From Halomicronema hongdechloris C2206 (lineage in GTDB: Bacteria > Cyanobacteriota > Cyanobacteriia > Phormidesmidales > Phormidesmidaceae), in contig NZ_CP021983.2 in assembly GCF_002075285.3 (NCBI RefSeq), forward strand, positions 1,350,001-1,382,000: 32,000 nt of DNA. The letters run 5' to 3'. A program made the translations under genes and the position numbers. The notes beneath the pieces are model-generated. The model did no database searches. It saw only the letters and a program-made list of their open reading frames with translations, and was not told the origin of the DNA. Of this stretch, positions 32 to 30,422 are shown in pieces; the first letter of the stretch is position 1, and each line of letters begins with the position of its first letter.

Positions 32-748
32 TTATCCCAGGAGAGCCGAAAATACCCAGTAGTAAATGGATTGTAGTGAGTTTAAACAAGGAATTAGGGT
101 GCTAATTCGTCTATCTAAATCCCTGGGCAGATGTTGCTGAATTGTGTGATAATCATAGGTTTTAGACAGGAGTGCCCGAGGTTGATTTGAGATCCTCAAT
201 GGTAGCCAGAGAACGAAATAATTTGAATAGTTTTGAGTTATTAAAATATCCTCTAAATAGTTCTCGACAGCGCTCTTATCTCGCGGGGTCATTGGTTGCC
301 CATCTGCCCAGGGGGTTAAGAATCGATAGCTTTGAGCTTTTTCTGATAATTGGTCTGATTCGGCAATATAAAAGAATGATTCACAAAAATGGAAAACGCT
401 CTTTTGTCCCAAGCCAAATTTACCAATCTTGGCTGAATTTCCAGCATTAAAATCGATTCCGATCCAACCAATCGCTTTTGCATCAGAATCTCGGAATCCA
501 CCATTATTGACAAAGAATAAAGATGGTTGTTCTAGGAGAGGATGTTCGACTTCTGTTGAGGGTAATCCTGGAGTTACCCCCATATCTAAGCGAGTTGCAC
601 CCGCATCATTCGCATTTTGAAGAATCTCTTTGATAATGGGAAATCCTTCTTTATATCGTTCCTTGAGTAGCGTTTGGATTTGATTAGCGATCGCTCCTGG
701 CGGAACTTCTAATCCTGTTTTGTCAAACTCCTGCATATCGGTAACCAT
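32..748 (-). CDS. Short GHKL (Bergerat-fold) ATPase-like protein of sacsin/MORC-like type. It is the last gene of the helicase operon and may be truncated.
   Basis: ATG at 746-748 and TAA at 32-34. Motifs are EILQNANDAG (N-box, ExxxNAxDA), FVNNGGF (G1-like) and GKFGLGQKSVFH (sacsin-type GxFGLG G2 box). The start lies 17 nt downstream of the UvrD-like stop on the same strand. At 238 aa it is short for this family. Confidence 0.6.
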   Translation of the reverse strand: MVTDMQEFDKTGLEVPPGAIANQIQTLLKERYKEGFPIIKEILQNANDAGATRLDMGVTPGLPSTEVEHPLLEQPSLFFVNNGGFRDSDAKAIGWIGIDFNAGNSAKIGKFGLGQKSVFHFCESFFYIAESDQLSEKAQSYRFLTPWADGQPMTPRDKSAVENYLEDILITQNYSNYFVLWLPLRISNQPRALLSKTYDYHTIQQHLPRDLDRRISTLIPCLNSLQSIYYWVFSALLG

Positions 749-765: not shown

Positions 766-2793
766 TTAGTTGAGAAATTTGCTAGGTTTTCCAACCCAGC
801 AAATGAACAGTTCATCCCTTGCCCGCGTAAGGCTTACGTACAGAAGCTGCCTCTCCCTAGCCAGTACATCCTTCTGTAGCTGAGTATCCTTAGTCCTATT
901 AACGAGATATTTCAGCGGCACCTGGTCATCCGATACATTCACTACAAACACCGCCTTAAACTCCAACCCCTTAGCCCGGTGCATCGTCCCCGCATTCACT
1001 GCCGACTCCCGTGCTCCCCCCTTCCGCAGGTTATGGCACTTGAGCCCAGCTTCCTTCAATGCACTCTCAAGCTGAGTAATCGCCTTGTTAGTACGAGCAA
1101 AAATAGCCACCTCTTCCGGGGCTAACCCCTCCTGGGTAATTGCTTGGATTTGCTTCACCAAGAACTCCTGTTGTTGCTCCTGGGTATTAAATCCCTTCAT
1201 GACGGGCTTGGGTCCACTCAAAAGACTGACCGTTCCCTTACGGCTCTCCTGTCCGCCATCCATGTCATCGCTCTGGTGACCCAGCATGGTATCGGCGAAC
1301 TGTCGAATTTGTTCCGTAGTGCGGTAGTTGATCCGGAGAATATGAGACCGTCCCCGCACATCCACCCCAAGCGCTTTGAGGCTAAACGGGGTGCTGTAAA
1401 TCCGCTGTCCTCCATCGCCTACCAGAGTGAGAGAATCATCCCCGTCTCCCGCCAATGCTGCCAGCAGCATAATCTCCTGGGGGCGCAGGTCCTGAAGTTC
1501 ATCTACGATGACGGCATCGAATGGACTTTCAACCTTCCCCGTGGTGACTAACTCCCTAGCTAAACGGCAAATGGAGGGGTAATCCATGCAACCCTTCTCA
1601 TTCAAGGTTTCATACACCCGCTGAAAAATCTGCCAGACCTGCTTTCGTCCCTTAACCGTTAGCGGAAACCCTCGACCTGTGCGGTTAGCACTGCGGTAGT
1701 CGTCCCAGGTGGTAACACCCTGGTCCTGAATGACCGTTTCCCATTCAGTCTTCAGCAGGTCGGGTTCTAGGGGACAGATACCAGGATGGTAATACTCATC
1801 GATAAGTTTCCAAATCTCGTCGTTATTGATGGGATAGAGATCTGAATTCGCTGTTTTGGCTAAAGCTAGCCCCTGGCTGTGAACCGTCGTTACCGTAATG
1901 CGCGATCGCTCCTCTGAGGTACATAGCAGCTCTAGGTTGTGCTCGATGTTTTCACACAGGGTCGATACATAGCTGGTCAAAAAGACCCGCTTACCCTGCC
2001 GCGCCAGATGTCGGGCTCGGTGCATCGCCACCACGGTTTTGCCCGTTCCGGCAGAACCGGAAACTTTGACAGGGCCAGCGAAGCTGCCTGTAGCCAGCTT
2101 TTGCTGGGAAGGATGGAGGAACGCCACCCAGGTTGCCAGGGGAGCCTCCAGCATTTTCATCAAGTCGTCGTTGTTTTCCATTACAAAGAAACGACGCCGG
2201 GTATCTTGACTAGCGGTAATGGGCTGGTTTTGGGCGATCGCAACTGGAGGCGTGACAAATTCCCCCTCTGCCAGTTTCAGCAGTCGCTCTCCTACATCTT
2301 CGGGCAGCTTAACAACGACTTTCCAGAGGTGGTCTATGTGCTGAACTTTGCGAATAGTGGGTAACCAATCAGTGGGAACGCCCAGGCTCTCCAGGTAATC
2401 ATTGTCATGGTCATCGAAGAGGCGAGGGATTTCAGGAACAAAATATTGAACCTGCTGCTCCACTACATCGGGCGACTCAACAATTTGCAGTGCTCCGGTT
2501 TTGGGGTGCCGGGCGATCTGACGAGTCTCAGCCCACTTATACGCATCGTCATGGTGGTCTGCATGGAGCACTGTCCAGATGTCACTGTCTTTGTGGACAA
2601 TGGCTCTCAATTCTTGGCTGATGCGGCCTGACCAGAGGTTTTCGTTCTTGGTTTGGGTGACCCGCTCCAAACTAAGACTAGGATGAGCTGGGTTTTCGAT
2701 AAACTTAGCCAAAAACTTCCACACTCGCTTCGCATCGTTGGAATCAAGGCGGGCGACCGCAGCTGGGAGGGATTGGTCAATGAGTACAGGCAT
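766..2793 (-). CDS. UvrD/Rep-family SF1 DNA helicase with an extra N-terminal RelE/ParE-like domain
   Basis: 675-aa ORF with ATG at 2791-2793, preceded by GGAGG 7 nt upstream. Walker A is GSAGTGKTVVAMHRA and motif II is VIVDELQDL. Later SF1 motifs are LVGDGGQRIY, INYRTT, GTMHRAKGLEF and YVSLTRARDEL. The first ~95 aa follow the RelE/ParE pattern (see findings). Confidence 0.85.
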   Translation of the reverse strand: MPVLIDQSLPAAVARLDSNDAKRVWKFLAKFIENPAHPSLSLERVTQTKNENLWSGRISQELRAIVHKDSDIWTVLHADHHDDAYKWAETRQIARHPKTGALQIVESPDVVEQQVQYFVPEIPRLFDDHDNDYLESLGVPTDWLPTIRKVQHIDHLWKVVVKLPEDVGERLLKLAEGEFVTPPVAIAQNQPITASQDTRRRFFVMENNDDLMKMLEAPLATWVAFLHPSQQKLATGSFAGPVKVSGSAGTGKTVVAMHRARHLARQGKRVFLTSYVSTLCENIEHNLELLCTSEERSRITVTTVHSQGLALAKTANSDLYPINNDEIWKLIDEYYHPGICPLEPDLLKTEWETVIQDQGVTTWDDYRSANRTGRGFPLTVKGRKQVWQIFQRVYETLNEKGCMDYPSICRLARELVTTGKVESPFDAVIVDELQDLRPQEIMLLAALAGDGDDSLTLVGDGGQRIYSTPFSLKALGVDVRGRSHILRINYRTTEQIRQFADTMLGHQSDDMDGGQESRKGTVSLLSGPKPVMKGFNTQEQQQEFLVKQIQAITQEGLAPEEVAIFARTNKAITQLESALKEAGLKCHNLRKGGARESAVNAGTMHRAKGLEFKAVFVVNVSDDQVPLKYLVNRTKDTQLQKDVLARERQLLYVSLTRARDELFICWVGKPSKFLN

Positions 2794-2804: not shown

Positions 2805-5369
2805 TCAGCTATTTAGCAGATGGTGGGTAATGTCGAGACGGCCCATGCCTTGTTTGCGATCTAGCTGTAGTGCCTGGCCTTCCTTATGAATGCGAATATG
2901 CCAGTACATGCGGTCATCTTTTTCTGTCGTCCAAAAGTCGTCTAATAAAGAAGACAAATCTTGAAAGGGCACCAGGATGGTTTGTTCAGGTGAGCCACAG
3001 CCTAGAGCCACGTATCCCTGGTCGAAGTTCTCCAAAAATTCTTTTTGAGAGGGGTGAAACGCAAACCAGTAGGAGGGTGCCCCGTTATTTTCATGAGTTT
3101 TAGAAATAGTGCAAACGACAGCAGTTGAGCCATCTTCAGTCACATATGCGGTTCGTGATTTTGAAAGCAGAGGTAACCCCAACACTTGAGAAACCCGCTC
3201 AATGCATTTTGGATGAAACCCGACGGGAGGTTCTCTGTCAGAATCGTCTGGTTCACTAACCTCGGGCGTTGCAATCGAGGCAGTCAACTTTTCCTGCTCT
3301 TGCAAGGCAATCATGATGCTGGCTAACGCTGCTTCTAATTGATTACAGCCAACAAGTAAAACCTTTGCACCTGCTCTCTCTAGCGCCGCTTTAATAGCTC
3401 CTGCCGAGAGTTCTTGGCTATCTACCAGATGGAGAACTTTATCGTTCTGAGCTACCTCTGCCAGAAAAGTGCCGACGACAACTCCATTGGCTTCTACATC
3501 ACCACCAGCTTCGATGGTTACCCCTTCAAGCTTGGAAAGTGCTTGCAGGAAAGGATGCCACTGAGATGAAAAGAGGTCATAGTCTACGGAGCCAATATCT
3601 TCTCGCACAATGGTCTTACCCATCGCCTTACCAATGCGGTCTAGCAGTGCTGCTTCTCGGGCACTGAAAAAGTGTTCAAAATCGTTAGCTCTGAGGGCGT
3701 CTGGCGGAATCAGATGCTCTGCCAAAATAGCGTCCATCCTTTCCTTGGAAATTTCCGCGCTTTTCTGAAGAGTGGCGAGATATTTGCTGGGAGGGTTGTT
3801 GCTGACCCGTCGATTGGTACCCGCAGAAAGAGGCGTTTTGTTGATAACGCTGTCGTAGCGCTTAGAATCCAGGCCAGCTTTCCGACACCAATCCTGAGGA
3901 AAGATGTGGTGAATATCGATTTTCTCGTCAAAGTAAACTTGCTCATTAATAGGAATACCAGAACGGAAATCAGGGGCACCATCCTGCATGAGCAAAGCAT
4001 AGATCCCCTTATAAGCCGCACTGTTCCGGGTCTTTAAGCCAAGTAACCGACCCGGTATGAAGTTGGCTGCCGCTACTGTATCTGGCTCTGGTCCTCCATC
4101 TACCCAGGCTAATACCTCTGGCAAATCCTTAGCAAAACGGCTTTCGATCGCACTTCCGTAAAGCTCTCCAAAAACTCCACACCAGTACCAGCGGATTAGC
4201 TTTTGTCTGACTCCGTGGTTGAGGGCTTTTTCGCCCAACACCGTGAAGATGGCAGCCAGGGGAACAAGCTGGGTTTTGTAGGGAATGTCTCGGGCAGTAA
4301 ACATCTTTTGCCCATGGAGTAGCTTGGCCGCCTCTTGAAATCCTCGGGTAATGGGATCTGCCCAGGTTTGATATTCCTCTAGCGTCAACCGCAAAATATC
4401 CCGTCGCTTACAGCTGATGCCAGGAGCCTTTTCGGGGAGAGTGCCGGATGTGATCGCGGCTTTCTGCCGCTGTAACGAAGCGACCAACGTCACGGACTGC
4501 AAGAAGTCAGTACTCTCGATATATTCCAGAATCCGAAATTCTGTTAAGCGAGCCTTGCGATCGGCCCAGTCTTGGCGCAGTAAATAGTCTTCAGCGGCAA
4601 AGGTCGCCGTCAGCAATTCAAAGACAGTTAGGGAAACCCCGCCTGTGTTTACCTTCTCAAATACCTGGCAGACTGCTTCCTTAGGCGTTTCCTTCCCGAG
4701 GGAAATCACAGGTACCTGATACTGCTCAAAGCGTTTGATGATTTCCTTATTGAACTGGCTGAAAAGCTTAATTTTGTCTTTGTCGTAGTCCCAATATTCC
4801 TGGTGTCCCTCCTGCCAATTGGAACAGTCAAAGACCTGGCTGATAGGGAATAAGCCCCGTTCATATTCTTTTTCCGGAGTGGAGTAATCTTCAATCACTT
4901 CGCCCCGGAAATTCTTGACTTGCCGGGTGTCGGGCAGGCTAACAACAGCATCTTCCCGTTCCACATTGGGATTCAATACTGCTTCCATATCAAGGTAATA
5001 CCAGCGGTAAATAGGGCGTCCGCGTAAATCGCGGGTCAGCACTGGGCGTTCTGCGTTAAGTGCCTGAAACAAGGAAGTTAAACGCTGCTGGCCATCAAGA
5101 ATGAGGCGATCTGCTTCAACAGGGGAGGAGAGTTGCACTCCTTCAATAGGTCTGGCCTTAAATTTCACATCTTCATTGCCAGTTTGAAGCATCATGACTG
5201 CGCCAATTGGGTAAGACAGAGAGATGCTAGCCAGAAGGCTCCGAACGTGTTCGTCGTCCCAAACCCATCCGCGCTGAAAATCAGGGAGCTGAATGTCTCC
5301 TTTGCGAATGCTTCTAAGAAGGTCAGAAAGACCTTCTTTTGTGCTGTCAAAGGTAGTCATCGTAGTCAT
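2805..5369 (-). CDS. GmrSD-like DUF262 (ParB-like NTPase, DGQQR) plus DUF1524 (His-Me/HNH-type nuclease) protein with two additional C-terminal modules
   Basis: 854-aa ORF. N-terminal motifs are IQLPDFQRGWVWD and LDGQQRLTSL (DUF262 signatures). The central region carries KIDIHHIFPQDW ... NKTPLSAGTNRRVSNNPPSKY (DUF1524-type His-Me finger). The ATG at 5367-5369 overlaps the upstream stop (ATGA). Confidence 0.85.
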   Translation of the reverse strand: MTTMTTFDSTKEGLSDLLRSIRKGDIQLPDFQRGWVWDDEHVRSLLASISLSYPIGAVMMLQTGNEDVKFKARPIEGVQLSSPVEADRLILDGQQRLTSLFQALNAERPVLTRDLRGRPIYRWYYLDMEAVLNPNVEREDAVVSLPDTRQVKNFRGEVIEDYSTPEKEYERGLFPISQVFDCSNWQEGHQEYWDYDKDKIKLFSQFNKEIIKRFEQYQVPVISLGKETPKEAVCQVFEKVNTGGVSLTVFELLTATFAAEDYLLRQDWADRKARLTEFRILEYIESTDFLQSVTLVASLQRQKAAITSGTLPEKAPGISCKRRDILRLTLEEYQTWADPITRGFQEAAKLLHGQKMFTARDIPYKTQLVPLAAIFTVLGEKALNHGVRQKLIRWYWCGVFGELYGSAIESRFAKDLPEVLAWVDGGPEPDTVAAANFIPGRLLGLKTRNSAAYKGIYALLMQDGAPDFRSGIPINEQVYFDEKIDIHHIFPQDWCRKAGLDSKRYDSVINKTPLSAGTNRRVSNNPPSKYLATLQKSAEISKERMDAILAEHLIPPDALRANDFEHFFSAREAALLDRIGKAMGKTIVREDIGSVDYDLFSSQWHPFLQALSKLEGVTIEAGGDVEANGVVVGTFLAEVAQNDKVLHLVDSQELSAGAIKAALERAGAKVLLVGCNQLEAALASIMIALQEQEKLTASIATPEVSEPDDSDREPPVGFHPKCIERVSQVLGLPLLSKSRTAYVTEDGSTAVVCTISKTHENNGAPSYWFAFHPSQKEFLENFDQGYVALGCGSPEQTILVPFQDLSSLLDDFWTTEKDDRMYWHIRIHKEGQALQLDRKQGMGRLDITHHLLNS

Positions 5370-8300
5370 GTAGGGTCTCCCTGAAAACTCGCTTTAAGGT
5401 TCTGGATAAGTTGGGGATCTTCAGATTGGGCGGCTAAAACGGCAAAGCCCTGAGCCTTCAAGAGTTCTGCAACAGTCTCAAAGTCTGGTTGCTCAGCATC
5501 TACCAGACGCATAGAACGACCGTTAACTGAAACCTCAGCCAGATACTCACCAACCACGCGCCCTCCATCGGCCACGTCCCCACCGGCTTCTACTTGCCAG
5601 TTGTGCTCTTGAGCCAGTTGTTCCATGATGGGCCGCCATCGGGCATCGAAGAGATCAAGGTCAACATGCCCGTCACGTTTATTGTTCTCATTGCTCGTAG
5701 CAGTATCAGAAGTGACAGATCCTTCCCCAAACACACCGGGATATCTCTTGAGAATTTCTGCCCAATCTGCTCGGTAACCAAACCGAAGCACCGTGTAACC
5801 AAAGTCCTCCAGACAATCAGCCTGGTTCTGGTCCCGCTTGTGCCGGTCTGGAAAATCGTGGTGAGGGCCATCCACATAAATCACCGTGGCGTTATCTCGA
5901 TACAGAAAATCAGGCCGAGTTCCACAATCTGGAATCAACACCTGAGCCTCAGAGGGCAAGCGATATCCTCGCGCCTGGAGGTACTGCAACCACTCCCGCT
6001 CAAGACCGGAATCGGTTTTGTTGAGCAATCCATCCAAATGCTCAGTCCGCGACTTCGATGATGGGGAAGCCAGCACCTCAGCTTCCGTTAGCTGCATTAG
6101 AACATCGCGAATTCTCTGACGATCCAGCAGGGCATGGTCTCGCTGGTTGCTGTAGTTCATCAAGCAGTCGTAGCAGGCGGCTTCGCAGTTTTCCTCCGAC
6201 TGCGGTCCATGGCCCAGGTCCTCACCCGTTTCTGGATTAAAGTGGCAAACTTCCAAAGCCGCTTTAGCCACAGAAGCCAGCGCTGTTGGGTCATTCAACA
6301 GCCGCTTCAACACCCCTGCCCCACCCTCAGCAGATTCATAGAACAGAATCAGCCGCCGATCGTCGCGATTTGGCAGAGGTTCCGCAGCTAGTTCATTATC
6401 TTCAAGCTGATAAGTTACTTGGATAGCCTGTTTGAGAGCTGCCTGCAACGAGGCCATTTGCTCAGGTCTGAGGGAGCCCTTCGGCTCAAACAGCAGGCTG
6501 TTGCGGTTGTCCTGCACATAGGGAATTACTCTCGATGTTCGGGGAGATAGGGGATCAGAGACATCCTCTTCCTCAGTGGCTTGCTCGTTCTTAGCCCAGT
6601 AGCCCCGTTCAATATCGAGCACAAAGCCAAACTGATCTTTGTTCTTGCGGCGAGCCCATCCCAGGTTAATACGCCATAGCTCGGCATTTTGGGCATAGGT
6701 CAGCTTGGCCAGATCTTTGCCTTTCCGTTTCACCGTGGCAACCTGGTAAGAGGGATGCCCATCCCGCTCAGGGAAGCGAACTCCCGTACAGAGGTCGTAG
6801 CCCAGGCGCAGGCGTTCTTCTTCGTCAGAGTTAATTTTGTCGCGGCGTTTGGTGGTGACGTTCTGCAGCCGGAAGAGCGATCGCAACGACGTACTCAAAT
6901 CTGCCGCACAGCGTTCACACTTATCCAGCCCTACCCCGTCATTGACCGGATGCAGATAGCCACAGCGGGGACAGGGCTTCACTTCGCCCAGTGACAGGGT
7001 GCCCTCGTCTCCTTCCACTGGCAAAATGACTCGGTTGATCAGGTACTTCGACCCCTCGTGGTACACCACCGAACGGGGACCAAATTCGGATATTGCCAGG
7101 AACCGAGGGCGAGATAGGTACTCCTCCCGGCCCTGACGCATTCGCCGTGCCGGAATGTAGGCCGACAGGGGCAACCGAGGGAAGTTATAGCCCGGCAAGA
7201 ACCCTTCGCTGGCGAAATAGCGATAGCTGTAGAAGTCTGATTGGGCCAGGTTATCCGAAACCGTCAGCAGCTCCAGCTGGGCTTCCGCTTCTCGCCGTAG
7301 CCGTTTGGCCTGGTCCTTATCCCTGGCCGGACGAGAGGCATCCTGGATAATTCGGTTCTGAACATTGAACTGCGCCAGGGCTGCTCGATAAAGGTCTCGC
7401 CACCGCTGGCAGGTATTCTCAAATCGTTGAGCAATTTGAGTGAAGACATTGTCCAGCCAGGTATCGTTGAACAGGCTGGAGTCATCCATCTCCGCCTTCA
7501 AAGTATCCAGAATGCGATGAGCCCGTTTCTTTGCTCTCTGCTTAGCTCCAGCATCATTCAAAGCCGCCAGAACATGGTCCTGCAGTTCCAGCGTAGGGGC
7601 ATCCTCGACCAGGTCAAGCTTGAGAATTTCCTTCAGAGACGAGCCTAGATTTAGACCAGCTTCCGCTAGCCAGACCGCCTGCAGGTGGGCTCGAATTAAG
7701 TCTTCGTTGCTCAGATCCAGCCGGGGCGGGGTGACAGCTCCCGTTACCATACGGTCGGGGCGTTTGAAGAAGTACTGATCGTGGGAGCTGCCCGTTGAAC
7801 AATAGGCAAACACCAGGGCTGGTTGGCCACTGCGCCCGGCTCGGCCACTGCGCTGGGCATAGTTGGCAGGGGTAGGGGGAACATTTCTCAGGTTGACCAC
7901 GTTGAGGTCGGCAATGTCTACCCCCAACTCCATGGTGGGAGAACAGTAAAGGATAGACAGATCCCCGGTTCGGAAAGCTTGTTCTCGCTTTTCCCGTTCA
8001 TCGGAGGGCACTTGGGCGGTATGCTCACGGGCTTCCAGTCCTTGAGTCGTGGCCGCGATTTTGCGATAGAACTCGACAAAGAACTCATTGGTGCGGCTAC
8101 CACCCTCCGGCAGCTGGGGCACACGGGTAGGGTCATGAAAGGGGGTGGTTCCATCGCCCACTGTCCACTGCAGAGCGGAAGCCACCAGTTGATAGCCCGG
8201 CACCTCCCCCTCCTTTTTCGGGGCGAGTACCTCTTCAACAATACCCGCGATTTTCAGCCCTTGCAGCAGTCCCCGAATAATCTGGTCCGTATCCTCTAGC

Positions 8301-10909
8301 TTGAGCCTCTCGCCAAAGTTGTCGAACGTGCTGGTGCGCCGCAAGTATTGACCATAGCCACTCCTCGATGACAGGAAAACATTGCCCCCAAAATCTTCTC
8401 CTTGCTTAAAGGAACGGGGAAATAGGACCGTGGCGTAGTGCAGGGTCTCGTTTTCGTCCAGCGCCCAGGGGTCTTTCAACCGTTGAGAGCTGCGCTGTTG
8501 GATGCGCTCCTGGTAGCGAGCATCTAAATAATCAACCTTGATGGCCAGCTCCCGCCGCATAAAGTCGAGCAGTACTTTAGCCACCTGCACGCGGGTTTCT
8601 GGAGCAGCGCTGACTAATGCCGGATGGCAGGACTGCCAGATGTCTTCGTCCTGGCAAACATCTTCCAGAGAAAGGTATTGAATTTCTAATAGCCCACACT
8701 GCTCCAGGTTGGGCGAGGTAATGCGCCATCCCCGTCGCAGGTCGAGGTAAAGCCGGTAGCCCAGTACATCCCGAAGGGCCTGATGGGTATCTTTTAGGGC
8801 CTGGTATTTAACAGCTGGGTCACTGGCATACAGGTCCAACGGCAGATTGAGGGCATCGAACACCCGCTGGGGTAGCTCATCATGGCGGAGCCCGTCTGTA
8901 CTGGCTCGTTCGACGGCTTTGTATAGGGCTGCCCGCAGGAGCCCCACTTCAATAAAGTCGTTGAAATGTCCGGCCTGCAGCGAGGCATCTTGGCGGTTAT
9001 CGGTAAAGCTGAGGAGTTTCTTCGCAGTTTCCGTCAGGTTAGAGCCCTTGAGTTTCAGAACTGAAGAGAGAGTGAGGATTGTCGTTGCGGTACTCCGCCC
9101 TTCTGATCCTAGAGACGCTAATTTCGCAAAGTCGGAGCGCTGGCGGCTGCCGTAGGAGACACCGCAGTTCAGGCAGAACCGAAAGGGCGTGGGTAGAAAA
9201 TGGCCGAATAGGTCAGGTTCCCCAATAAACCCATCCGTCTTGAAGTGCATGGGTTCAGGCAAATGCTTCTTGCGAGACTGGCGCACCCGTGGCCCTCGAG
9301 TGGGATGTTCCTCAATCCAGTCTTCTGGCAGCAAATTCAGCATGCCTTCTGGGTCTGTGGGCCAGGGATTTCTGGTGTTGAGATAGAGGAAGCCAGATTC
9401 GCTGACGTTGTCGTTTTGGGTATCGGATAACTCACGGGGTTCTAGCTTGGCCTGATCAACCGCGAAGTCATGGGTGCGCCTGACGGCGTAATACTCTTGA
9501 CCACATTCACGGCAAAATACCAGCGGCAGCAAAATGCGGCTGCGATCGCCCGGTACAAACTGCTGGGCCTGAAGGGTAATATGGCGCTCCTCTTCAGTGC
9601 CTAGGGAGGCATAGACCGTGTCGCCTTTGCTGATGAACTGGTGCAGCCGAAAAGCAAAGGGAGCAAAGTCAGTCTCAGGATGTTTAACCTTATGCCCAAT
9701 CAGCAACCCTTCTTTGATGGCTGCAGCACACTGTTCCTTAGGGACATCGATGAGCTGACTTAACGATTCAGCCGCCGCCTGTTTCCCAAGAAGACTTTGT
9801 GGCTTAGCCCTAACGAGACGCCCGGTTTCGGGCTCAGGTTCTACCCCAAAGGTGCCCTCAATCCAAATGGAGAGAGGGTCTTGGATAAAGGTGTCATACT
9901 CACTAGAGAGGGGATTGGGTGGATTGACAATCCGAGTTCTCAACGCCTGAATAAAGGCAGGGTCTTGAAACTCTCGGTCGGGAGTAGCCCGTTTTAGGGT
10001 TTCACCGATGATGTGCTCTGGCTTGACGGTAGTACCAAAGAGCTGAGTGGCGACCTTCGCTACCTCGGCCTGCTGTTCTGAATAAGTGCCGCCACTAGCA
10101 AGGGTGGCGGAAGTGCCGACACACTGGAGGCTGTCAGCAGCCATGCGCTCTCGCACCCGCCTGACCAGCAGGGCAACGTCTGCCCCTTGCCGCCCCCGAT
10201 AGGTGTGGAGTTCATCCAGTACCAGAAACTGCAGCCCCTGAGCCGCTTCAATTAGCTTGCGCTCCTTAGGACGGGTCAGAATCAGCTCCAGCATGACGTA
10301 GTTGGTCAGTAGAATATCAGGGGGATTGTCGAGAATCTGCTGCCGTTCGTCTTCTTTTTCTTGCCCGGTGTAGCGCTCGAAGGTAACCGGAGGTGAACCT
10401 TCGGGATAGCCTTGCTGTAGGAATTTACGGAGTTCTCCGGCCTGGCTGTTGGCCAGGGCATTCATGGGGTAAACCACGATAGCTTGAATCCCTTTTCCAG
10501 AACCCCGCTTCAGCACATGGTTCACGATAGGGATGATGTAGGACAGGCTTTTCCCTGAACCGGTGCCTGTGGTTAAGACATAGTTGTGGCCTTCTGAGGC
10601 TGTCAGCACGGCATCAAACTGATGCTTGTGCAGTCTGAGGGCAGACCCACTGCTCTCTGTTTTACCTTTTTTGACTCTGAATATAGAGGAACACTCTTCG
10701 TGGAGAATGTCACGAGCAACCAGGTCATCAATCCATTCCCCCGGTTCAAAGGAAGGATTGAGTTGAATCAATGGCTCTGGCCAAAGGACCCCCGACTTGA
10801 GCTTCTCTTCGACGTGTTGCTTGATGTGCTCGTCTCGAATCTGAATGAAGCTGGTGACGTACTTGCTGTAGTCGCCAATTAATCCATCGCGGAAGTCAAA
10901 AATATTCAT
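5366..10909 (-). CDS. Giant SF2 DEAD/DEAH-type helicase with DUF1998 (MrfA-type Zn-binding) module, Vsr/DUF559-like endonuclease-fold domain and an unnamed C-terminal domain. It resembles DruE, DrmAB and Hhe.
   Basis: 1847-aa ORF. Helicase motifs are [12 protein letters not shown] (I), [12 protein letters not shown] (Ia), [11 protein letters not shown] (II), GTSATL (III), [10 protein letters not shown] (V) and QRSGRAGR (VI). CxxC pairs are CRECG and CLNCG. The DUF1998-like part has [18 protein letters not shown]...CERC and [18 protein letters not shown]. The Vsr-like part is RPDFLY...[11 protein letters not shown]...GYTVLRFGY. Confidence 0.85.
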
Positions 10910-11023: not shown

Positions 11024-11398
11024 TCATGCTTCAATCAAAGGCTCATGTTGAATACTCTTTTCCCCGAAATCTGTTTGCAGTAACCGTCGAATTAGAGTAA
11101 GTCGCTGGACGTCTTGTTGCGTTAACCAGGATTCAATTTCATAAAAGGCTTGTCCATTTTTATACTGGGTCCGTAGCGTCAGAATCGTTTCCGGCAGGTG
11201 GTGGTTATCTCCCTTGAATTCAATATTCAGATTTCGACCCCGCTCCACAATCATGTAGAACTGCTTACCCTCAAACACTCGCTGCCCAAGAGGTTGGTCT
11301 TGACAGAACCGTTCCAGGAGAAGCACAGCAGTTCCCGCAATCTGCTCTTGGGTCTTGCGGTCAACCGGGATAGGTTCTCTAGCTTTAGGTGATTTCAC
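11024..11398 (-). CDS. Hypothetical protein, third gene of the ParM-like operon
   Basis: 124-aa ORF. Its GTG start at 11396-11398 overlaps the stop of the upstream ORF (GTGA, 11395-11398), which suggests translational coupling. No family recognised. Confidence 0.45.
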   Translation of the reverse strand: MKSPKAREPIPVDRKTQEQIAGTAVLLLERFCQDQPLGQRVFEGKQFYMIVERGRNLNIEFKGDNHHLPETILTLRTQYKNGQAFYEIESWLTQQDVQRLTLIRRLLQTDFGEKSIQHEPLIEA

Positions 11399-11898
11399 GT
11401 CAAGTCATTGATGAAGGGATTGAGCCCTGCCATGATTGCTGCGTCGTCTCCTAAGAATGCTCGCAGTTGTTCATCGGCGGGGCCATCAGCGGGTAGAGAC
11501 TGATCTGGGAAGACTGCAGTTTTGCTGGGTTCTACTATTTTCATGGAGGTAGAACCAGCGCAGCGTTCTTTGGGATCTACATGAAATGCCAATGAATCAA
11601 GGCGATGTGGTTCAGATAAAACTTCCGGGGACAGCAACTCTGGGAAGAATTGCTCTTTGATTTCTGCAATCTGAGTCGTCAACTGTCGAATCGATCGCAT
11701 CGCCTGCCGCCGGATCTCATCCTCTGAAGCTGCCATTGCTGCCATGGCAAAGGGACCATAGAAACCGTTCAAAGCAGATCGCGTTCGAGCATGCAGGTCA
11801 TGGCGCGATCGCCCGCGACAGTAATCGATGACGGCCACATCCAACTCATCCTGGCTGGAGTACTGAATTCGGGCTTTGGTTCTGAATGCGTGGGTCAT
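11395..11898 (-). CDS. Hypothetical protein; its position suggests a ParR-like centromere-binding adaptor
   Basis: 167-aa ORF with ATG at 11896-11898, 42 nt downstream of the ParM-like gene. The N-terminal segment KARIQYSSQDELDVAVIDY could be a strand-helix (RHH-like) DNA-binding element. The assignment rests on gene order only. Confidence 0.4.
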   Translation of the reverse strand: MTHAFRTKARIQYSSQDELDVAVIDYCRGRSRHDLHARTRSALNGFYGPFAMAAMAASEDEIRRQAMRSIRQLTTQIAEIKEQFFPELLSPEVLSEPHRLDSLAFHVDPKERCAGSTSMKIVEPSKTAVFPDQSLPADGPADEQLRAFLGDDAAIMAGLNPFINDLT

Positions 11899-11940: not shown

Positions 11941-13074
11941 CTAGCGGGGTTGAGCCGGTGCAGCGCTGTACATGAACGTCTTGAACAACCCATAGACATC
12001 TGCCCAGCGAACGCTGGTAATCAAATCAGGCTCTGCTGTCCCCTCCTGTCCTCGGAGCACATCCATCATTTCCGGCCTTAACGTCTCCGCCCAGGCAATC
12101 TGCTGAGTGAGTCCCCGCTGGTCAAAAAACTGCTTTAACTCTGCACGGATGAAATAGGCGGCACCGCCACCCACAATCACGTCCACTTCGGAAGCGGGCA
12201 GCCACTCCACCAAAAATTGATTGACTCGCTCCAGGTAAAACTCGCGAGCATAGATGCTGGCTTGAGACAGATCGAGGGCTTCCTGCCGACCGGGAATCTG
12301 AAACGTTTCATGGTTCTGAAGAATGGCTTCGAGCAAAGCTGGGTCATCGGGAGCGACACCAGGCAATTCAGTTGCACATTGCTTCAGGTACTCCACAAAT
12401 CCAGGTCCTCGAGAAGTGCTGTTGGTTTCCTGGGGAGTGCTGCCCTTCTCGAAGGTAAGGATGGAGAGATTGCGGTGGCCAAACATGAGGACAACAACAG
12501 TGCGATCGCGAATACTGATACCCGATTTTGCCAACTGCAACCCCTTCGCTAGATAAAGCCCCGCTCCCTCCGGCTGCATCTCGATTCGCTCTAGCTGCCC
12601 AGAGAGGACTTTGCCACGAAAGCTGAATTCTGAAATTGCCCCTTGCATCTGGGCTTTGAGTTCTTTCCGGTCTTGCCAGTATTCCTCCAGCGGCAGCAGC
12701 AACCCTAAATGAACTCCGAACTCACAACCAGAGTTGTCAGAATCATGTCTACTCAAAGTCTTGTCGGCAATAACGCCTAATGTCGCCAGGATTTTGTAGA
12801 CGGCGCGATCGCGCTTCGGCAGAGCTAATCCAGAGTCGCCCTTTTGAGCGATCGCGAGTGCCCCAACGGCATAGGTGCCATTGCCCACCGTGATGTAAGC
12901 ACTATCTTCCGGTTCCTGACTGGTGAGTCCGCCTAACGTGAGGCGATCGAGGCGGGAGGGGTTGAGGCGAGCCACTTGCGGAGCCAGGTGCAGTAATTCA
13001 GGTTTACGATGCCAATAAAAACACTTGGTCGCGGAGCTACCCATGTCAATGTAAGTCTGGAGCTTTGCAGTCAT
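11941..13074 (-). CDS. Actin-fold (ParM/Alp-like) plasmid segregation ATPase
   Basis: 377-aa ORF. The N-terminal YIDMGSSATK fits the phosphate-1 DxGxxxxK motif of ParM-type actins. VIVGGGAAYF fits the adenosine/GGG motif. The phosphate-2 region (VVLMFGHRNLSILTF) is divergent. The gene sits next to a relaxase and upstream of two small genes, as in parMR loci. Confidence 0.55.
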   Translation of the reverse strand: MTAKLQTYIDMGSSATKCFYWHRKPELLHLAPQVARLNPSRLDRLTLGGLTSQEPEDSAYITVGNGTYAVGALAIAQKGDSGLALPKRDRAVYKILATLGVIADKTLSRHDSDNSGCEFGVHLGLLLPLEEYWQDRKELKAQMQGAISEFSFRGKVLSGQLERIEMQPEGAGLYLAKGLQLAKSGISIRDRTVVVLMFGHRNLSILTFEKGSTPQETNSTSRGPGFVEYLKQCATELPGVAPDDPALLEAILQNHETFQIPGRQEALDLSQASIYAREFYLERVNQFLVEWLPASEVDVIVGGGAAYFIRAELKQFFDQRGLTQQIAWAETLRPEMMDVLRGQEGTAEPDLITSVRWADVYGLFKTFMYSAAPAQPR

Positions 13075-13655
13075 AAATAAAAGCCAAATAACGACTTGTC
13101 ATCAACAACATGAAGGCATTTAGAGAGCCCTGTCATTGCTAAATGACACTCTCATTTTGGCGAGTCGTTTTAATTCACGACTTAATCGCGGTTGAATTGT
13201 GATTTCTAGTAAATTTCATCAATGACATGATGCAGATTACTTCGATACTGCAGTGTTGGAGCACGGCTTGATCACGACTTAACCATAAGTAAAATGGTCT
13301 GTAGGCCACAATGAAAAAGATCCATGTCATAATTAACAACTTAAAAAAGGCTCTTTCACGATTTGAAAATGACTTACCAGAATTTTTGCGCTGGTTGCAG
13401 TAGACTTGCTCATAATTGTGATTTTCAAGAACTAATTTCACAGCATTTCTGATGACTGAAAGTCGGCGTTCTACCTGAGCTAAAACTGGAGACATCAGCG
13501 CGTTTTCTCAACAGCAGATTTCTGGGAGAGAACGACAGGCAACTGAATATTGGAGGCTACGCCACTCCACTGCGTTTCGTAGCTTCGCTTCCACACACCA
13601 CGCCCAGCCCTGGGCCAGGGGGTTCTGGAAACCCCGTTCAGTAAGGGATGCAGTC
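13075..13655. promoter_or_regulatory. Divergent intergenic region, mostly AT-rich (about 13075-13500). Candidate parC-like centromere and/or oriT plus promoters.
   Basis: It lies between the ParM-like gene (minus) and the RHH/relaxase operon (plus). The 11-mer TCACGACTTAA occurs twice (13175-13185, 13272-13282) and ACGACTT once more at 13091-13097. The hexamer TGTCAT/ATGACA occurs five times (13097, 13131, 13143, 13222, 13325). One pair forms a 7-bp-arm inverted repeat at 13131-13148. An imperfect palindrome GCGAGTCGT...ACGACTTAATCGC lies at about 13160-13189. Confidence 0.35.
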
Positions 13656-14028: not shown

Positions 14029-16710
14029 ATGCTGAGCCTGACGGTGATCAGCCCCAACCAGGGCGAAACCTACTACACCGCTGAAAACTACTACTCCAAT
14101 GAGGAGAACCAGGCCAACTCGACCTGGTCGGGTAAAGGGGCCAGATCGCTGGGGTTATCGGGCCAGGTGCAGGGCGAGGCCTTTAAGAACCTGCTCCACG
14201 GCAACAGTACTCAGGGCGACAAAACCCTGTCGGGGCGGAAGATCAATCCCGAAAAGCATCGGGCAGGCATTGACCTGACCTTCAGTGCGCCGAAAAGTCT
14301 CAGTCTGGCCGCGCTGGTCGGAGGCAACGAAGCCTTGGAGCAAGCTCATCGCACGGCGATGGCTCGAACGCTAGAAGTCATCGAGGAGCGGTATGCCCAG
14401 ACGCGAGTACGGACGGAGGAGGGAAGAAAAGCGATCGCTACCGGCAATCTCATCGTGGCCCAGTTTCACCACGACACCTCTCGGGAGAAAGACCCGCAGT
14501 TGCACACCCACTGTGTCGTCATCAATGCCACGCAACTGGCAGACGGACGCTGGCAGTCCCTGCACAATGACATTCTGTTCAAGCAGCAGAAACTGCTGGG
14601 GATGATTTACCAGAACGAACTGGCAGTCGAGGTGCAGCGGTTGGGCTATGCCATTGACCCTAGAGCTAATGGTCAGTTTGAACTACAGGGGTATCGACCG
14701 GCAGACCTGCAAACCTTTTCTAAACGGCGGGAGCAGATTTTGGCGACGGTGGGAGAGAATGCCACGGCCCAGGAGCGGGAGCTGGCCACCCTGATGACGC
14801 GAGCACCCAAGGGCAAGGAAATTCCCCGGGAGGAACTGCGAGCTTACTGGCAGGCGCAAGCCGAGGTTTTGCATCTGGAGCATCCCCAGCCTCGGGTCCT
14901 GGACTGGCAAAGTGATCTGAAAAAGGCGGTGCAGGCAGGGCTGAATCATTGCTCCGAGCGGGAGGCGGTGTTCCGGCGAGAGCAGGTGGAGCGCTTTGCC
15001 CTGGAGAATCATCTGGGGCAGCAATTCTTTGAGGACTTGCAGCAGACCCTCGATACCGATCCGGAGGTAATTCACACCGATGATCAGCGGTTGACGACGC
15101 AGACGGCGGTGCTGAGAGAGCTAGAAACGATTCGGACGGTACTGGAGGGCCGAGGGCAGGTGGGGGCAATTGCCAGCGAAGGTTGGGTGGCAGCGACTTT
15201 GGCAGATCAGGGGTTAACGCAAGGTCAGTATGAGGGGATTTTGCTGGCGGCGACGACTCGCGATCGCGTTATTGCCTGGCAGGGGGTGGCAGGAGCCGGG
15301 AAAAGTTTTGCCTTGAACCAGTTCCGCCGGATTGCGGAGGCTCAAGGGTACACCGTTCGAGGCTTTGCTCCCAGTGCGGAGGCGGCAAAGTCGTTGGGGG
15401 AGTCGGCCCAGATTCAGCAGACAGAGACGGTGGCAGCGTTGCTCTGTGCTCAGCCCCAGGAGACACCCTCTCAGTTTCCAGAGATCTGGGTGGTGGATGA
15501 GGCGGGACTTTTAAGCGCAAAAGATGCTCTGGCGCTGCTGACCCAGGCTCAGGAGCAGCAGGCGCGCGTGATTCTGGTGGGGGACACCCGGCAGTTGTCA
15601 GCAGTGGAAGCGGGGAATCCATTCAAGAGCTTGCAGCAGGCAGGGATGGTGACGGCTTACCTGCATCAGTCTTTGCGGCAGAAGAACCGGCAGATTAAGG
15701 CTGGGGTAGATCTGATTGCGGAAGGGAAGATTGCGGAAGGAATTCAGCAACTAAAGCCATACATTCATCAGGTGAGTAGTGAGGAGGCGAGGGCGCAGGA
15801 GATCGCCCATGACTATCTGACCCTGACGCCGGAGGAGCGACGGAAAACGCTTCTGCTGGCAGGGACAAACCGGGAGCGGTTGGCCATCACTCAAGCAATT
15901 CGAGCAGGACTAAAGTCGGAGGGGCAGTTAGGCCAGAATGTTCTGATGCAGCGGCTCAAGGCCAGGGATTTGACCTCGGTGCAGATGGCCTATGCTCACC
16001 ACTTTCAGGTCGGTGATGTGCTGATGCCCCAGGCCAGTTACAGGCGATGGGGGTTGGAGCGGGGACAGCGGTATGAGGTGCTTGCAGTGGATGTGCAGCA
16101 GAATGTGGTGACCCTGCGGGCTGAGAGGGGACCTGCTGTGCAGGTTGATCCAGCCAGGGTTGGGAAGAAGTCGGTGTACAGGATCGAGGAGATTGAGGTG
16201 GCGATCGGGGACCGTCTGAAATGGACGAAGAACCAGGCCACGCTGGGCCGCCGCAATGGGCAGGAGTTTGAGGTCTACGGCATTGAGGATGGGCAGGTTC
16301 TGATTCATTATGGCAGCGGAAAAACAGAAAGTCTGAGCTGTTCAGAGCTGGCCCATCTGGACTATGCCATGGTGAGCACGACCTACGGAGCTCAAGGCAA
16401 GTCAGCGGAGCGGGTGATTGGGGCGTTGGATCGGCATCTGGGGCGGGAGAACTTTTATGTGACGGTAAGTCGGGTGAAGCATGACCTGAGGCTTTACGCT
16501 TCCGAGGATTTGGACCGGCTGATTGCGCGGGCAGAGCAGTCCAGGGCGAAGGAGAATCCAGGGGAGGTGGTGAGAATTCAGCAGGATGGCGATCAGCAAC
16601 TAGCCTCTGTGCAGACCATAAGGCATCAGAATAGCGACCTAAGCTTCCGAAACTTGGATGAGGAGAAGCAAGGACCGCCGTTGAATAACAAGATTGAATT
16701 GGAACGCTGA
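14029..16710 (+). CDS. MOBF-family conjugative relaxase (TrwC/TraI-like) fused to an SF1 (RecD/TraA-like) helicase
   Basis: 893-aa ORF with ATG at 14029, preceded by AGGAGG at 14016-14021. The N-terminus has tyrosine pairs (GETYYTAENYY) and WSGKGARSLGLSG. The histidine triad is HHDTSREKDPQLHTHCVVINAT. Helicase motifs are GVAGAGKSF (Walker A), IWVVDEAGLLS, LVGDTRQLSAVEAGNPF, TTYGAQGKS and YVTVSRVKHDL. Confidence 0.9.
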   Translation: MLSLTVISPNQGETYYTAENYYSNEENQANSTWSGKGARSLGLSGQVQGEAFKNLLHGNSTQGDKTLSGRKINPEKHRAGIDLTFSAPKSLSLAALVGGNEALEQAHRTAMARTLEVIEERYAQTRVRTEEGRKAIATGNLIVAQFHHDTSREKDPQLHTHCVVINATQLADGRWQSLHNDILFKQQKLLGMIYQNELAVEVQRLGYAIDPRANGQFELQGYRPADLQTFSKRREQILATVGENATAQERELATLMTRAPKGKEIPREELRAYWQAQAEVLHLEHPQPRVLDWQSDLKKAVQAGLNHCSEREAVFRREQVERFALENHLGQQFFEDLQQTLDTDPEVIHTDDQRLTTQTAVLRELETIRTVLEGRGQVGAIASEGWVAATLADQGLTQGQYEGILLAATTRDRVIAWQGVAGAGKSFALNQFRRIAEAQGYTVRGFAPSAEAAKSLGESAQIQQTETVAALLCAQPQETPSQFPEIWVVDEAGLLSAKDALALLTQAQEQQARVILVGDTRQLSAVEAGNPFKSLQQAGMVTAYLHQSLRQKNRQIKAGVDLIAEGKIAEGIQQLKPYIHQVSSEEARAQEIAHDYLTLTPEERRKTLLLAGTNRERLAITQAIRAGLKSEGQLGQNVLMQRLKARDLTSVQMAYAHHFQVGDVLMPQASYRRWGLERGQRYEVLAVDVQQNVVTLRAERGPAVQVDPARVGKKSVYRIEEIEVAIGDRLKWTKNQATLGRRNGQEFEVYGIEDGQVLIHYGSGKTESLSCSELAHLDYAMVSTTYGAQGKSAERVIGALDRHLGRENFYVTVSRVKHDLRLYASEDLDRLIARAEQSRAKENPGEVVRIQQDGDQQLASVQTIRHQNSDLSFRNLDEEKQGPPLNNKIELER

Positions 16711-17009: not shown

Positions 17010-20000
17010 TTAGGGAATGATGCTCTGAAAGATTTCGTAGTTGTAGAACTTGCAGCGACTCTGGATAGTTGAGATCAAGCTGGGTACATACGTGAAAATA
17101 TTGTTCGAATCTGATTCTAATAAAAGTTTGCTGAGGTAGCCTATTTGATCAGGCTGAATGATTTCTTTCAATGAGGAAGCAAATTTCCAGACTTCATCAG
17201 AATTAGCTATCTTTAGAGCCTCAATTAATTCATCAAAACTATACTCATTAACCAACCTATCTATCATGATGCTGACGTTATCGCCAGTTGATTGTTCGGT
17301 AGAAAGATAATCGTGATAAATGTCATTTGAATCCCCACTGATCCTTTTAATCGCTAATCTTGCATTCTTCCGCACTTGGGAATCTTGACTACTTAACTCC
17401 GTTTTCAAAGCCGTCAGGCAGCCTCCTCCTAGCTCGCATAGTGCGCCGATAGCATCACGTGAGACTGACGAATCTTCAAATCCAATAGAGTTTCGACAAC
17501 CTAAAGCTTCAATCAAGACTGGAATACTATCAGTAGCTCCTTCCTTAGCAAGGATAAGAGCAGCGGATAATCGGATTTGAATTTTCGGATCATGAAGGGA
17601 ACGGACAAGAGCACCCCTTGATGCTTCAGTAGGTATCTTCCCCAAAGTTTCGATACAATCTTTTCGGATATCTTCGGTAGAAGACAAATCTTCTAGAATT
17701 TCAATAATAGACTGATCGAGATTCTCAACACCTAGTTTTCCTAGAGCCAAGAGAGTCTGTATATAAATTTGATTAAACTCAAACACGTTACCTGTCTCAT
17801 TAAGTTCTTTTTCAGCTCTTCTAAGATTCTCTTTAAGAAATGAAATAACGGTTGAATCGCCTATCTCACCAAGAGCCTTAATGGCAAAAGTTTTGACAGA
17901 TAAATTCTCATGTTCGTTTAGTAGAGCTTTGATCAATATTGGAATGGATTCTTTTTTGCGCTTTTGCAACAATATAGATATTGCCACTGAATGTTTAGAG
18001 CTATACTGGGTTGTTTTGGAGTCATCTTCAGTAAGAACTCTTTCAAGAACGTGCATAACCGTCAAGTCATCCACGATAATTAGGGCCGTACTAGCACTAT
18101 TGCGGACTAGGAAATCTGAGTCAAGAAATGCAACACTCAATAACGCTTCTGCTATGGTTTCAGAAATCGACTGAGTTTTTGTTACGATCTCTATCGCCCG
18201 TTTTTTGACTACAGAGTCATTACTCTTCAACGCGTTTATTAAATCATTTTCCAAAAAAACAAGCGCATCTTTCTGTAGTGAGTCACAAACAAAATTTCTA
18301 ACTTGCATGTCATCATCGAGCCAGGCTTTTGCAAGTATAGAAAGAGCTTCTTCATCACCCACATCTCTTAACGCGTGTGCAGCTGAACGTCGAGTAACGC
18401 TATCTTCGTCATGGAGTGCTATTTCTAGGAAAGGAAGAATATCTCCATACCCTTTGTTGAGTAGCAAATGAAGACTTGTTATTGCTTTACGTCTAGCTTC
18501 AAGATCTGCGTGTATGAGAGTCTCGCCTAACAGAGGTATTACCTTATCTCTATCTATGTTCTCAATGGCAAGAAGTGCTCTAAAGTGATGCTTTTCAACA
18601 CATAAAGCTTCTTGAAGTGCGGGAATAGCTGATTCATCTCCAAAACTGGCTACTTCACAAGCGGCTATCCAACGAATATCTTCGTCTGAATCTTCTAATG
18701 CCTTTTTTAGAGTATCTACAGAGCTGAGAGTATTTACTTTTCCTAAGGCTTTTATTGTTTCACTCTTTATAAAGGCTTCATCACTTTCTAGTAGTGGGCT
18801 CAAAAATGAAATAGCGGCAAAAGATTTTGTCTCTCCTAGAAGCTTGATTTTGAGTTTTAGAGGGACTGACAAATCATTGACCGAGTTTACTGCCGAAACC
18901 TGTAAGTTATGTTTTGCATTTCCAGCTAGCCTCGCTCCCAGCATTGAATCCACATCATTCATCGCCAGCTTCACTACCCGCAACGCCTGCGCTTCCTCAT
19001 CCACCAGTGCCAGCATCAGAGCAATGGGTTCAGTCCACTTCAACAGGTTGAGGTAGTCTCGCTTTAGTTCCTCATCGCTTAGGTCTGGCAATAGCCGCAG
19101 CAAATGTTCTGCCGCATAATATTCCTGGATTAGCTGGTGGCGAAACTCAATTTGGTCAGTACTGCGGTTTTGCAGCAGGTGGTACTTGAGCAGGTCATCC
19201 AAAATATCTCGAACTGGGAACTGCTCATTGGAGAAAATTCTGCTGAGTTCCTGCTCTGCCTCATCTCGGTGGATGGCTACACGAAAATCAACCGGGGTTT
19301 CTCCCTGCATCATGACTGCGGCAAGAGCTTGCAGGGCGGGTTTCCAGAGTCTGCGATCGCTCAGCGGTCTCACATCCCCTTTCAGCAGCGTCACCTCATG
19401 CTTTCGCACACTGCTGTCTTCATACATCCGGGTAAATGCCTGAAAAATCCCCGCCAGGTTAGAGGGCATTTGATGCTCAGGCGACTGCTGAAAGACCTCG
19501 CAGAGCATCCACAGCAGTAAAGGCGTTTGGCCGAACTCCCGCAAGCGATCGCTGAGTTGCCCCAGCATTGCCTCGGCCTGGTCTGACACGTAGGCGCGAA
19601 TAAACGCCTTCATTTGCTCTTCAGTCAGGGACTGCATTTCCAGTTTCTTCTCGATGCCCAGATCTCCCCCCAGGCCCAGCTCTCGGGTGGTGAAGATCAT
19701 GGGCACTTTGGAGTAGTCCTGCCGAAAGCTTGCCAGATGAGTTCTTGCCGTTTCGGATGGCAACTCATTTAACCCATCCACTAGGAGTAAAAAATGCCCC
19801 TGGCGCAGTAGCGATGTAAGAGTACTGTCATCCAGAGAAAGAGTGGGATCGTGTTTGTGGAGAAATGCCTGGATGCGATCGATGACTGAGGTTTGCCAGT
19901 AGCGCAGTTCTACCAAAATGGGAATTTGGCCTGAGCCCTGCTCCAATGCCTGAGTGGCCGTTTCCAGCAGTAGCCGAATCAACGCTGTCGATTTGCCAGA

Positions 20001-21255: not shown

Positions 21256-21392
21256 ATTGAAGCTTGGCTGAGTTTTAGCCATCTGCCTCCTTAGATTAGG
21301 AAACCTGTCTCCTCGGTAATTTGCTGTGATGTAATAGCCGAGGAGCCGGATTTCTTTATGAAAACTAAATACAGAAGCATCCTGTTTATCGT

Positions 21393-21629: not shown

Positions 21630-21677
21630 CGGCAGATCAATCTGGATGACATGCAAATACAATTTCCAATTCTGTCG

Positions 21678-22706: not shown

Positions 22707-22800
22707 AACCCAGGAATTTGACCATAGCCAACTGTATGATCTTTAAGGGGAGTCTTTAAGCTTGCGTCGTCAACTTTTCTTAACACCCGATTAGCTTCGC

Positions 22801-30417: not shown

Positions 30418-30422
30418 ACCAC

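Follow-up and report, generated by a model that had tools for sequence, protein, structure and literature searches.

A rare acidic domain shared by two adjacent genes of an ARMADA-like operon is associated with the gene for the ArmD-type helicase

ARMADA is an anti-phage defence system described only in 2025 (Bell et al. 2025, PMC12458937). Its helicases are ArmA, of SNF2/BrxHII-like type, ArmC, which is YprA-like and ends in a Vsr nuclease, and ArmD, which is of the GajB-like UvrD type and begins with a RelE-like region; ArmB is a PglX-like methylase. The RelE-like part is reported to span the first ~95 amino acids (aa) of E. coli ArmD (PMC12458937, Table S2), and deletion of armD in E. coli causes the mildest defect among the ARMADA genes (doi 10.1101/2025.09.22.677730, enterohaemorrhagic E. 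coli (EHEC) OI-172). ARMADA II ArmC proteins "often" carry additional inactivated EEP- and Vsr-like domains past the active Vsr domain, and a second Vsr-like domain is reported at this position in E. coli ArmC (PMC12458937), so that an extra degenerate nuclease-like domain in ArmC is already precedented. The ARMADA papers (PMC12458937; doi 10.1101/2025.09.22.677730) neither link the extra domain to ArmD nor report it on other proteins. Here we analyse an operon in a 32,000-nucleotide (nt) stretch of the Halomicronema hongdechloris C2206 genome (contig NZ_CP021983.2, positions 1,350,001 to 1,382,000; hereafter the window), in which an ArmC-like helicase and a GmrSD-like protein have an acidic domain in common. 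We find that the domain is real, that it belongs to a family with many fusion partners, and that in ArmC loci it has a near-exclusive genomic association with armD.

The operon portion in the window consists of three co-directional genes on the minus strand for proteins of 1847, 854 and 675 aa, transcribed in that order. Its features, in window coordinates, are as follows.

5366..10909, minus strand: ArmC-like YprA-family helicase-nuclease, 1847 aa, with DEAD, Helicase_C, MZB/DUF1998 and Vsr/DUF559 domains, then the shared domain
5726..6019, minus strand: Vsr/DUF559-type nuclease domain of ArmC (aa 1631-1728; Pfam DUF559 at aa 1667-1710), adjoining the linker and the shared domain
5378..5668, minus strand: shared domain, ArmC copy (aa 1750-1846), C-terminal, past a 22-aa low-complexity linker; profile match 2.7e-33
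5366..5369, minus strand: ATGA stop/start overlap of armC and the GmrSD-like gene, read from the sequence, the TGA of armC overlapping the ATG
2805..5369, minus strand: GmrSD-like protein, 854 aa, with DUF262/GmrSD_N, a His-Me-like 'DIHHIFPQ' region, the shared domain, an acidic linker and a C-terminal module
3294..3590, minus strand: shared domain, GmrSD-like copy (aa 594-692), internal; profile match 9.4e-33
2808..3254, minus strand: C-terminal module of the GmrSD-like protein (aa ~706-854), unrelated to the shared domain and found in ~390-aa stand-alone proteins
766..2793, minus strand: ArmD-like helicase, 675 aa, with an ArmD-specific N-terminal region and a GajB-like UvrD core
2089..2793, minus strand: ArmD N-terminal region (aa 1-235), found in every ArmD-like gene beside a carrier of the domain

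By Pfam, the 1847-aa protein shows the composition of an ARMADA ArmC, a YprA-like DEAD/DEAH helicase with DUF1998/MZB and a C-terminal Vsr-type nuclease: DEAD (2e-26), Helicase_C (1e-14), MZB (7.8e-10) and DUF559 (9e-5) follow one another in this order, and a family alignment of the Vsr region conserves RPDF...YVDGPHH. The top PADLOC match is DruE3 (9e-103), the best profile of a protein from the same YprA family, but the C-terminus is Vsr-type and not PLD-type as in Druantia. We rejected Druantia despite this match: PADLOC detected no DruH or DruA-D among eight neighbouring open reading frames (ORFs), and the neighbours are ARMADA-type. The 675-aa protein has the Pfam domains UvrD-helicase and UvrD_C and matches GajB in PADLOC (1.5e-33). 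As expected of an ArmD, its N-terminal region contributes to a profile (A5) that matches E. coli EDL933 ArmD at 5e-56; Pfam finds nothing in this region, and the label of a RelE-like fold is taken from PMC12458937. The 854-aa protein, identical to ASC70364.1 of Halomicronema hongdechloris C2206, has at aa 14-257 the GmrSD_N domain (PF03235, 3.5e-35) by which GmrSD type IV enzymes are recognised at their N-terminus. For DUF1524, the His-Me finger nuclease domain at the C-terminus of such enzymes, Pfam gave no match in this protein at E<=0.01; a 'DIHHIFPQ...NKTPL...N' motif is seen by eye around aa 484-520. The armD gene starts 11 nt past the GmrSD-like gene, with a GGAGG Shine-Dalgarno sequence at 2800-2804.

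Related genomic loci contain genes for ArmC, an ArmD-like helicase, SNF2 and an Eco57I-type methylase, in that order. Two near-identical relatives of the operon (L173/L174) encode ArmC, the GmrSD-like protein, ArmD, a 781-aa protein, SNF2, a small toxin-antitoxin-like gene pair and the Eco57I methylase; SNF2 lies downstream of armD in the ortholog L081 as well. No ArmA or ArmB gene lies inside the window, past whose left edge the operon runs. Because related loci and L173/L174 show ARMADA-type gene sets, we assign the window operon, on its gene content, as a putative ARMADA variant in which the gene for a GmrSD-like nuclease has come to lie between armC and armD. It resembles ARMADA in the YprA-family helicase with MZB/DUF1998 and Vsr, the following ArmD-type helicase and, in close relatives, the SNF2 and Eco57I/PglX-like methylase genes. 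It differs in gene order, which is ArmC-(GmrSD-like)-ArmD-...-ArmA-ArmB and not strictly A-B-C-D, in the inserted nuclease, and in the extra ArmC domain, which belongs to a separate sequence family without recognisable relation to the domain that ends E. coli ArmC. A comparison of the operon DNA with plasmid and E. coli collections gave no match. By eye, the last ~100 aa of E. coli ArmC have the helix-strand order of the shared domain, without statistical similarity.

A preliminary description of this stretch had noted a module common to the 1847-aa and 854-aa proteins, and its comparison by formal alignment is significant. When the final 100 aa of ArmC were compared by BLASTP with the entire 854-aa protein, one ungapped alignment resulted, of ArmC aa 1747-1823 with GmrSD-like aa 595-671 (30/77 identical, 39%; 60% positives; E=1e-15), and a profile built mostly from other family members matches both window copies at E ~1e-33. 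The coordinates first proposed lie within about 12 nt of the profile-defined ones. The size needs revision: the homologous unit is real and covers ~100 aa, not 77-90 aa, since the final helix belongs to it ('LEAALASIMIALQ' in the GmrSD-like copy, also present in the ArmC copy). The translational coupling postulated for the two genes is borne out by the ATGA overlap at 5366-5369. In E. coli EDL933 (L172 30460-38912), armC and armD likewise overlap by 4 nt.

The preliminary description placed the module in no family, and indeed it has no sequence match in Pfam, NCBIfam or the PDB. It is rare: searched exhaustively with a profile, 1.84 billion representative proteins yielded 164 matches at E<=1e-3, 102 of them at E<=1e-10, with the GmrSD-like copy itself (P0193, aa 594-692) at the top (7.5e-28). 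A word-indexed homology search with the isolated domain as query recovered a near-identical fragment alone, and the domain alignment lacks any conserved stretch of 7-10 columns. The domain is typically C-terminal, ending within 15 residues of the protein end in 117 of the 135 scored matches. Besides ArmC-type helicases, its carriers are a superfamily 1 (SF1) helicase with an MTES_1575 nuclease, NERD-kinase-helicase and NERD+UvrD proteins, plain UvrD/Rep helicases, an AddA-like UvrD+PDDEXK_1 protein, a Zorya ZorD (SNF2), NOV_C proteins and giant SF1+DEAD proteins. Because it is fused to at least eight architectures, we regard the domain as an accessory module that moves among the helicases and nucleases of defence systems. 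In the ZorD case, a Myxococcota Zorya-like operon (L082 5324-13108) made up of a ZorA-like gene, two small genes and a SNF2 ZorD-like gene, the domain ends ZorD and no ArmD-like gene lies nearby.

What the preliminary description had not remarked is the nearly perfect co-occurrence of the domain with the gene that follows in the operon, that of the ArmD-type UvrD helicase. We scanned with profiles, in six frames, 80 genomic ArmC loci (a survey seeded with an ArmC C-terminal alignment), 80 metagenomic ArmD loci and 10 further contexts, ~170 loci together. Among the genomic loci, 18 ArmC genes end in the domain, and wherever enough downstream sequence was available (15/15) an ArmD-like gene follows directly. 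None of the 62 domain-less armC genes has armD downstream; there the SNF2 gene follows directly. Conversely, in the metagenomic survey, seeded with the ArmD N-terminal region, the domain is encoded <=200 nt upstream of armD in 57 of 68 evaluable loci, typically at a spacing of 6-30 nt, and farther upstream in two more (L091, the window ortholog, and L129).

Proteins inserted between armC and armD extend this association. Like the GmrSD-like protein of the window, the unrelated NERD+UvrD-like protein inserted at this place in L106 has its own copy of the domain, located at its end, so that the domain recurs on two unrelated inserted proteins. In L129 the inserted gene encodes an IS605 TnpB transposase and has no copy, which is a useful negative control. 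This IS605 OrfB/TnpB gene (8723-9928) sits exactly between armC and armD, and a related TnpB gene is found upstream of an orphan armD-SNF2 pair in L092. Beside carriers other than ArmC, genes of the ArmD family were recognised by the ArmD-specific N-terminal region: an armD-like gene starts 1 nt downstream of an AddA-like helicase-nuclease carrier (L088), another opens the operon that contains a giant SF1+DEAD carrier (L084), and a third is divergent from a NERD-kinase-helicase carrier (L086/L087). Apparent ArmC-ArmD fusions (L028, L078, P0336), which if genuine would have counted as Rosetta-stone evidence, were rejected as spurious stop-to-stop ORFs in another frame or as a frameshift-ridden gene call.

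The domain is uniformly acidic. Net charge is negative in 181/181 copies (-16 to -1, median -7; median isoelectric point (pI) 4.5), and conservation over 177 non-redundant copies falls on D3, F7, W11, G29, acidic 31, V38, A44, D57 and G74. Acidic residues are also conserved at position 27; position 31 is D/E in 100% and position 57 is D in 83%, and no Lys or His is conserved. The ligand- or nucleic-acid-sensing role offered earlier as an alternative is disfavoured as regards nucleic acid, because every copy examined has a net negative charge. The first 95 aa of ArmD are basic (median pI 9.3).

We tentatively read the domain as a docking or regulatory adaptor that couples its carrier proteins to ArmD, an interpretation to which we give a little less than an even chance. 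In this reading the domain is flexibly tethered, has a predicted restriction-endonuclease-like fold, would not bind nucleic acid and has probably lost catalytic activity. It would mark proteins that work with the ArmD-type UvrD helicase of ARMADA-like systems. The standard arrangement has the domain at the extreme C-terminus of ArmC, with armD starting within a few nucleotides. By physical binding through the domain, ArmD would be joined to ArmC and, in this operon, to the GmrSD-like nuclease as well; the docking surface would most likely be the basic N-terminal region of ArmD, as the counterpart of the acidic domain. The inserted GmrSD-like type IV restriction nuclease would then represent a second effector plugged into the same helicase. 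In Gabija, GajB forms a complex with its nuclease partner GajA. This complex offers a possible parallel for ArmD docking: ArmD is GajB-like, and a UvrD-type helicase docked to a nuclease-bearing partner is what we propose. The differences are that the proposed partner is ArmC or the GmrSD-like protein and not an OLD-family nuclease, that ArmD has an extra N-terminal region absent from GajB, and that for ArmD the complex is a proposal.

Several observations weigh against an ArmD adaptor. ArmD is not the sole partner, because in four of the eight non-ArmC carrier contexts no gene of the ArmD family lies within 10 kb; the carriers there are ZorD (L082), NOV_C (L083), a YprA-like protein (L085) and an SF1+MTES_1575 helicase (L089). 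Nine of the 68 evaluable armD-seeded loci have no detectable domain upstream, and E. coli ARMADA II has ArmD, yet the domain profile misses its ArmC C-terminus. The correlation between ArmC and ArmD could partly come from shared descent. A neighbour-joining tree is star-like and too poor to prove independent gains of the domain plus ArmD; distances between domain copies correlate more strongly with those of the ArmC core (r=0.82) than with those of the ArmD N-terminal region (r=0.69), and the residual between domain and ArmD N-terminal region in a Mantel (mirror-tree) analysis is small (partial r 0.12, p=0.003). The invariant acidic residue 31 and D57 could also hint at residual metal binding or catalysis.

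A further-reaching form of the adaptor idea, which we regard as possible but doubtful, sees in the domain a portable "plug" and in the helicase its "socket". By acquiring the domain, any effector would become a client of ArmD, possibly through acidic, DNA-mimicking and antitoxin-like engagement of the basic RelE-like N-terminus.

The preliminary description had instead suggested homotypic docking. The two copies would bind each other, like with like or as a heterotypic pair, and tether the GmrSD-like nuclease to ArmC, with ArmC dimerised in single-copy loci. Consistent with this idea, the two copies belong to genes that follow each other directly and are translationally coupled, first in the window with its relatives and a second time in L106; the inserted gene bears a copy in both lineages, which fits a need for the same handle as ArmC; and the predicted fold resembles nucleases that work as dimers, PD-(D/E)xK-fold domains often being dimeric. 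However, two copies per locus are confined to the window lineage (window, L081/L091, L173/L174) and L106 among the ~170 loci, and every other domain-bearing locus has a single copy. Nor are two copies of one locus closest to each other: the window copies are ~40% identical to many copies elsewhere, about the same as to each other, and those of L106 are 41% identical mutually and 50-60% to copies of other loci. Paired occurrence is exceptional and, judged from these identities, does not stem from recent local duplication, and the homotypic pair is not borne out as a general rule. The counter-proposal that the domain is a common stand-alone module without a tendency to pair in adjacent genes is right in part, in that pairing is rare and fusion partners are many. 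Self-association would also leave the link to armD (15/15 versus 0/62) unexplained, and strongly acidic copies are unfavourable for contact of like with like unless a metal or a partner bridges them. We therefore consider homotypic docking unlikely.

The analogy behind the homotypic idea was with effector-associated domains (EADs), which are likewise small domains common to adjacent defence proteins. EADs of NTPase-centred conflict systems are said, in the Aravind laboratory's description, to be homotypic adaptors that are characteristically paired within a locus. The shared domain, in contrast, is single-copy in almost all loci and tracks one helicase gene.

A second rival, to which we assign an equally low probability, starts from the fold. 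The AlphaFold2 model of the ArmC copy (predicted local distance difference test score (pLDDT) 93.9, predicted template modelling score (pTM) 0.84) shows a helix, a five-strand meander, a helix, a strand and a helix. A Foldseek search with this model (PDB, BFVD) returned nothing at E<=1e-3, and the best weak matches (E>=0.006, template modelling (TM) scores 0.45-0.65) are all PD-(D/E)xK nucleases: Bax1, R2 restriction-like endonuclease, AF1548, RecU, Hjc, VRR-NUC and DUF2726. The domain could thus be a second nuclease domain that has degenerated and serves, in cis, as a pseudo-partner of Vsr-like or PD-(D/E)xK-like type, placing or regulating the active nuclease domain of its own polypeptide. 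Most carriers also hold a domain of PD-(D/E)xK type (Vsr, MTES_1575, PDDEXK_1, NOV_C or NERD), and ARMADA II ArmC proteins are described with "additional inactivated nuclease domains" (Bell et al., PMC12458937). The domain shares with the Vsr/DUF559/PD-(D/E)xK fold its predicted alpha-beta-alpha topology and adjoins a true Vsr domain, but it has an extra beta-hairpin and no significant sequence or profile similarity, and it is without the conserved Lys or His. A Pfam scan of 17 members gave no DUF559 or Vsr match even at E<=10, and hhalign found no relation to the ArmC Vsr region (probability 4%) or to the terminal 103 aa of E. coli ArmC (0.2%). At the site that by eye corresponds to the catalytic Asp in the 'aDla' strand of DUF559, there is no conservation. 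A fixed intramolecular pseudo-dimer is further disfavoured by the long, variable and flexible linker between the Vsr domain and the shared domain (11-63 aa, rich in A/P/S/T), and no Pfam PD-(D/E)xK domain was found in the GmrSD-like protein, in the UvrD/Rep helicases P0249 and P0277 or in the SNF2-type ZorD P0302.

We consider least probable an autonomous sensor or DNA mimic that binds a phage protein or small ligand, or fills a DNA-binding cleft as an acidic decoy, independently in each carrier: promiscuous fusion to unrelated helicases and nucleases, some without ArmD nearby, uniform acidity and the conservation of D3, F7, W11, acidic 31 and D57 would suit it, but it predicts neither the near-exclusive adjacency to armD nor the extreme C-terminal placement before armD, and no ligand-binding fold was matched.

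The C-terminal module of the GmrSD-like protein constitutes a separate family. Its 71 homologues match this part alone, and it is 40-55% identical to ~70 stand-alone ~390-aa proteins; hhalign found no relation of these proteins to the shared domain (probability 0.4%). Its AlphaFold2 model (pLDDT 86) has no fold match in the PDB, and the module is thus a likewise unnamed family. The N-terminal half of the ~390-aa proteins has a D...EVK motif, recognised by eye and without a Pfam match, that is suggestive of a PD-(D/E)xK nuclease.

In L173 (2935-10004) and L174 (633-7671), the DEAD/Helicase_C and MZB/DUF559 parts of ArmC are encoded apart, with one or two unannotated genes of the other strand between them, presumably a mobile-element insertion. 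In the window, three small ORFs lie upstream of armC (124, 167 and 106 aa; 11024-11898 and 13175-13495, minus strand); two of them overlap by 4 nt, and none has a Pfam or PADLOC match. A cluster of five EAD10-bearing proteins (17010-31469, both strands) beside the ARMADA operon is a classic paired-adaptor conflict system. The remaining features of the neighbourhood are listed below.

32-748, minus strand: sacsin/TmtA-like HATPase fragment, 238 aa, after armD (Pfam SACS 1e-16)
11941-13074, minus strand: ParM/ALP-like protein
14029-16710, plus strand: TrwC relaxase with a TraI-type helicase domain
17010-20543, 22801-25425, 25490-27922 and 28120-30417, in the EAD10 cluster: four EAD10 proteins with a NACHT NTPase, some with HEAT repeats
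21678-22706, in the EAD10 cluster: small EAD10 protein
30423-31469, following the EAD10 proteins: caspase/CHAT-like protein

The sacsin-like ORF may be truncated or frameshifted, the protein at the same position in L173/L174 being 781 aa long. Judging by the ParM/ALP-like protein and the relaxase, the defence genes probably belong to an integrated element of conjugative or mobilisable type.

Accessory or degenerate nuclease-fold domains in defence helicases are of a known kind; new relative to the ARMADA papers (PMC12458937; doi 10.1101/2025.09.22.677730) are the definition of this family, its spread over defence proteins, its linkage to armD and its recurrence on inserted proteins. The family is without a Pfam or NCBIfam model and can be defined from the present alignment. 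Because it is present when armD follows armC and absent otherwise, the domain gives a concrete handle on ArmC-ArmD coupling in a system so recently described, and the fact that unrelated nucleases located between armC and armD come with a copy of their own suggests a general route by which defence systems could recruit further effectors. If the domain does act as a portable plug, its candidate clients would be ArmC, the GmrSD-like type IV nuclease, the NERD-UvrD protein and the AddA-like nuclease, and ARMADA-type systems would be extendable with new nucleases by simple domain shuffling.

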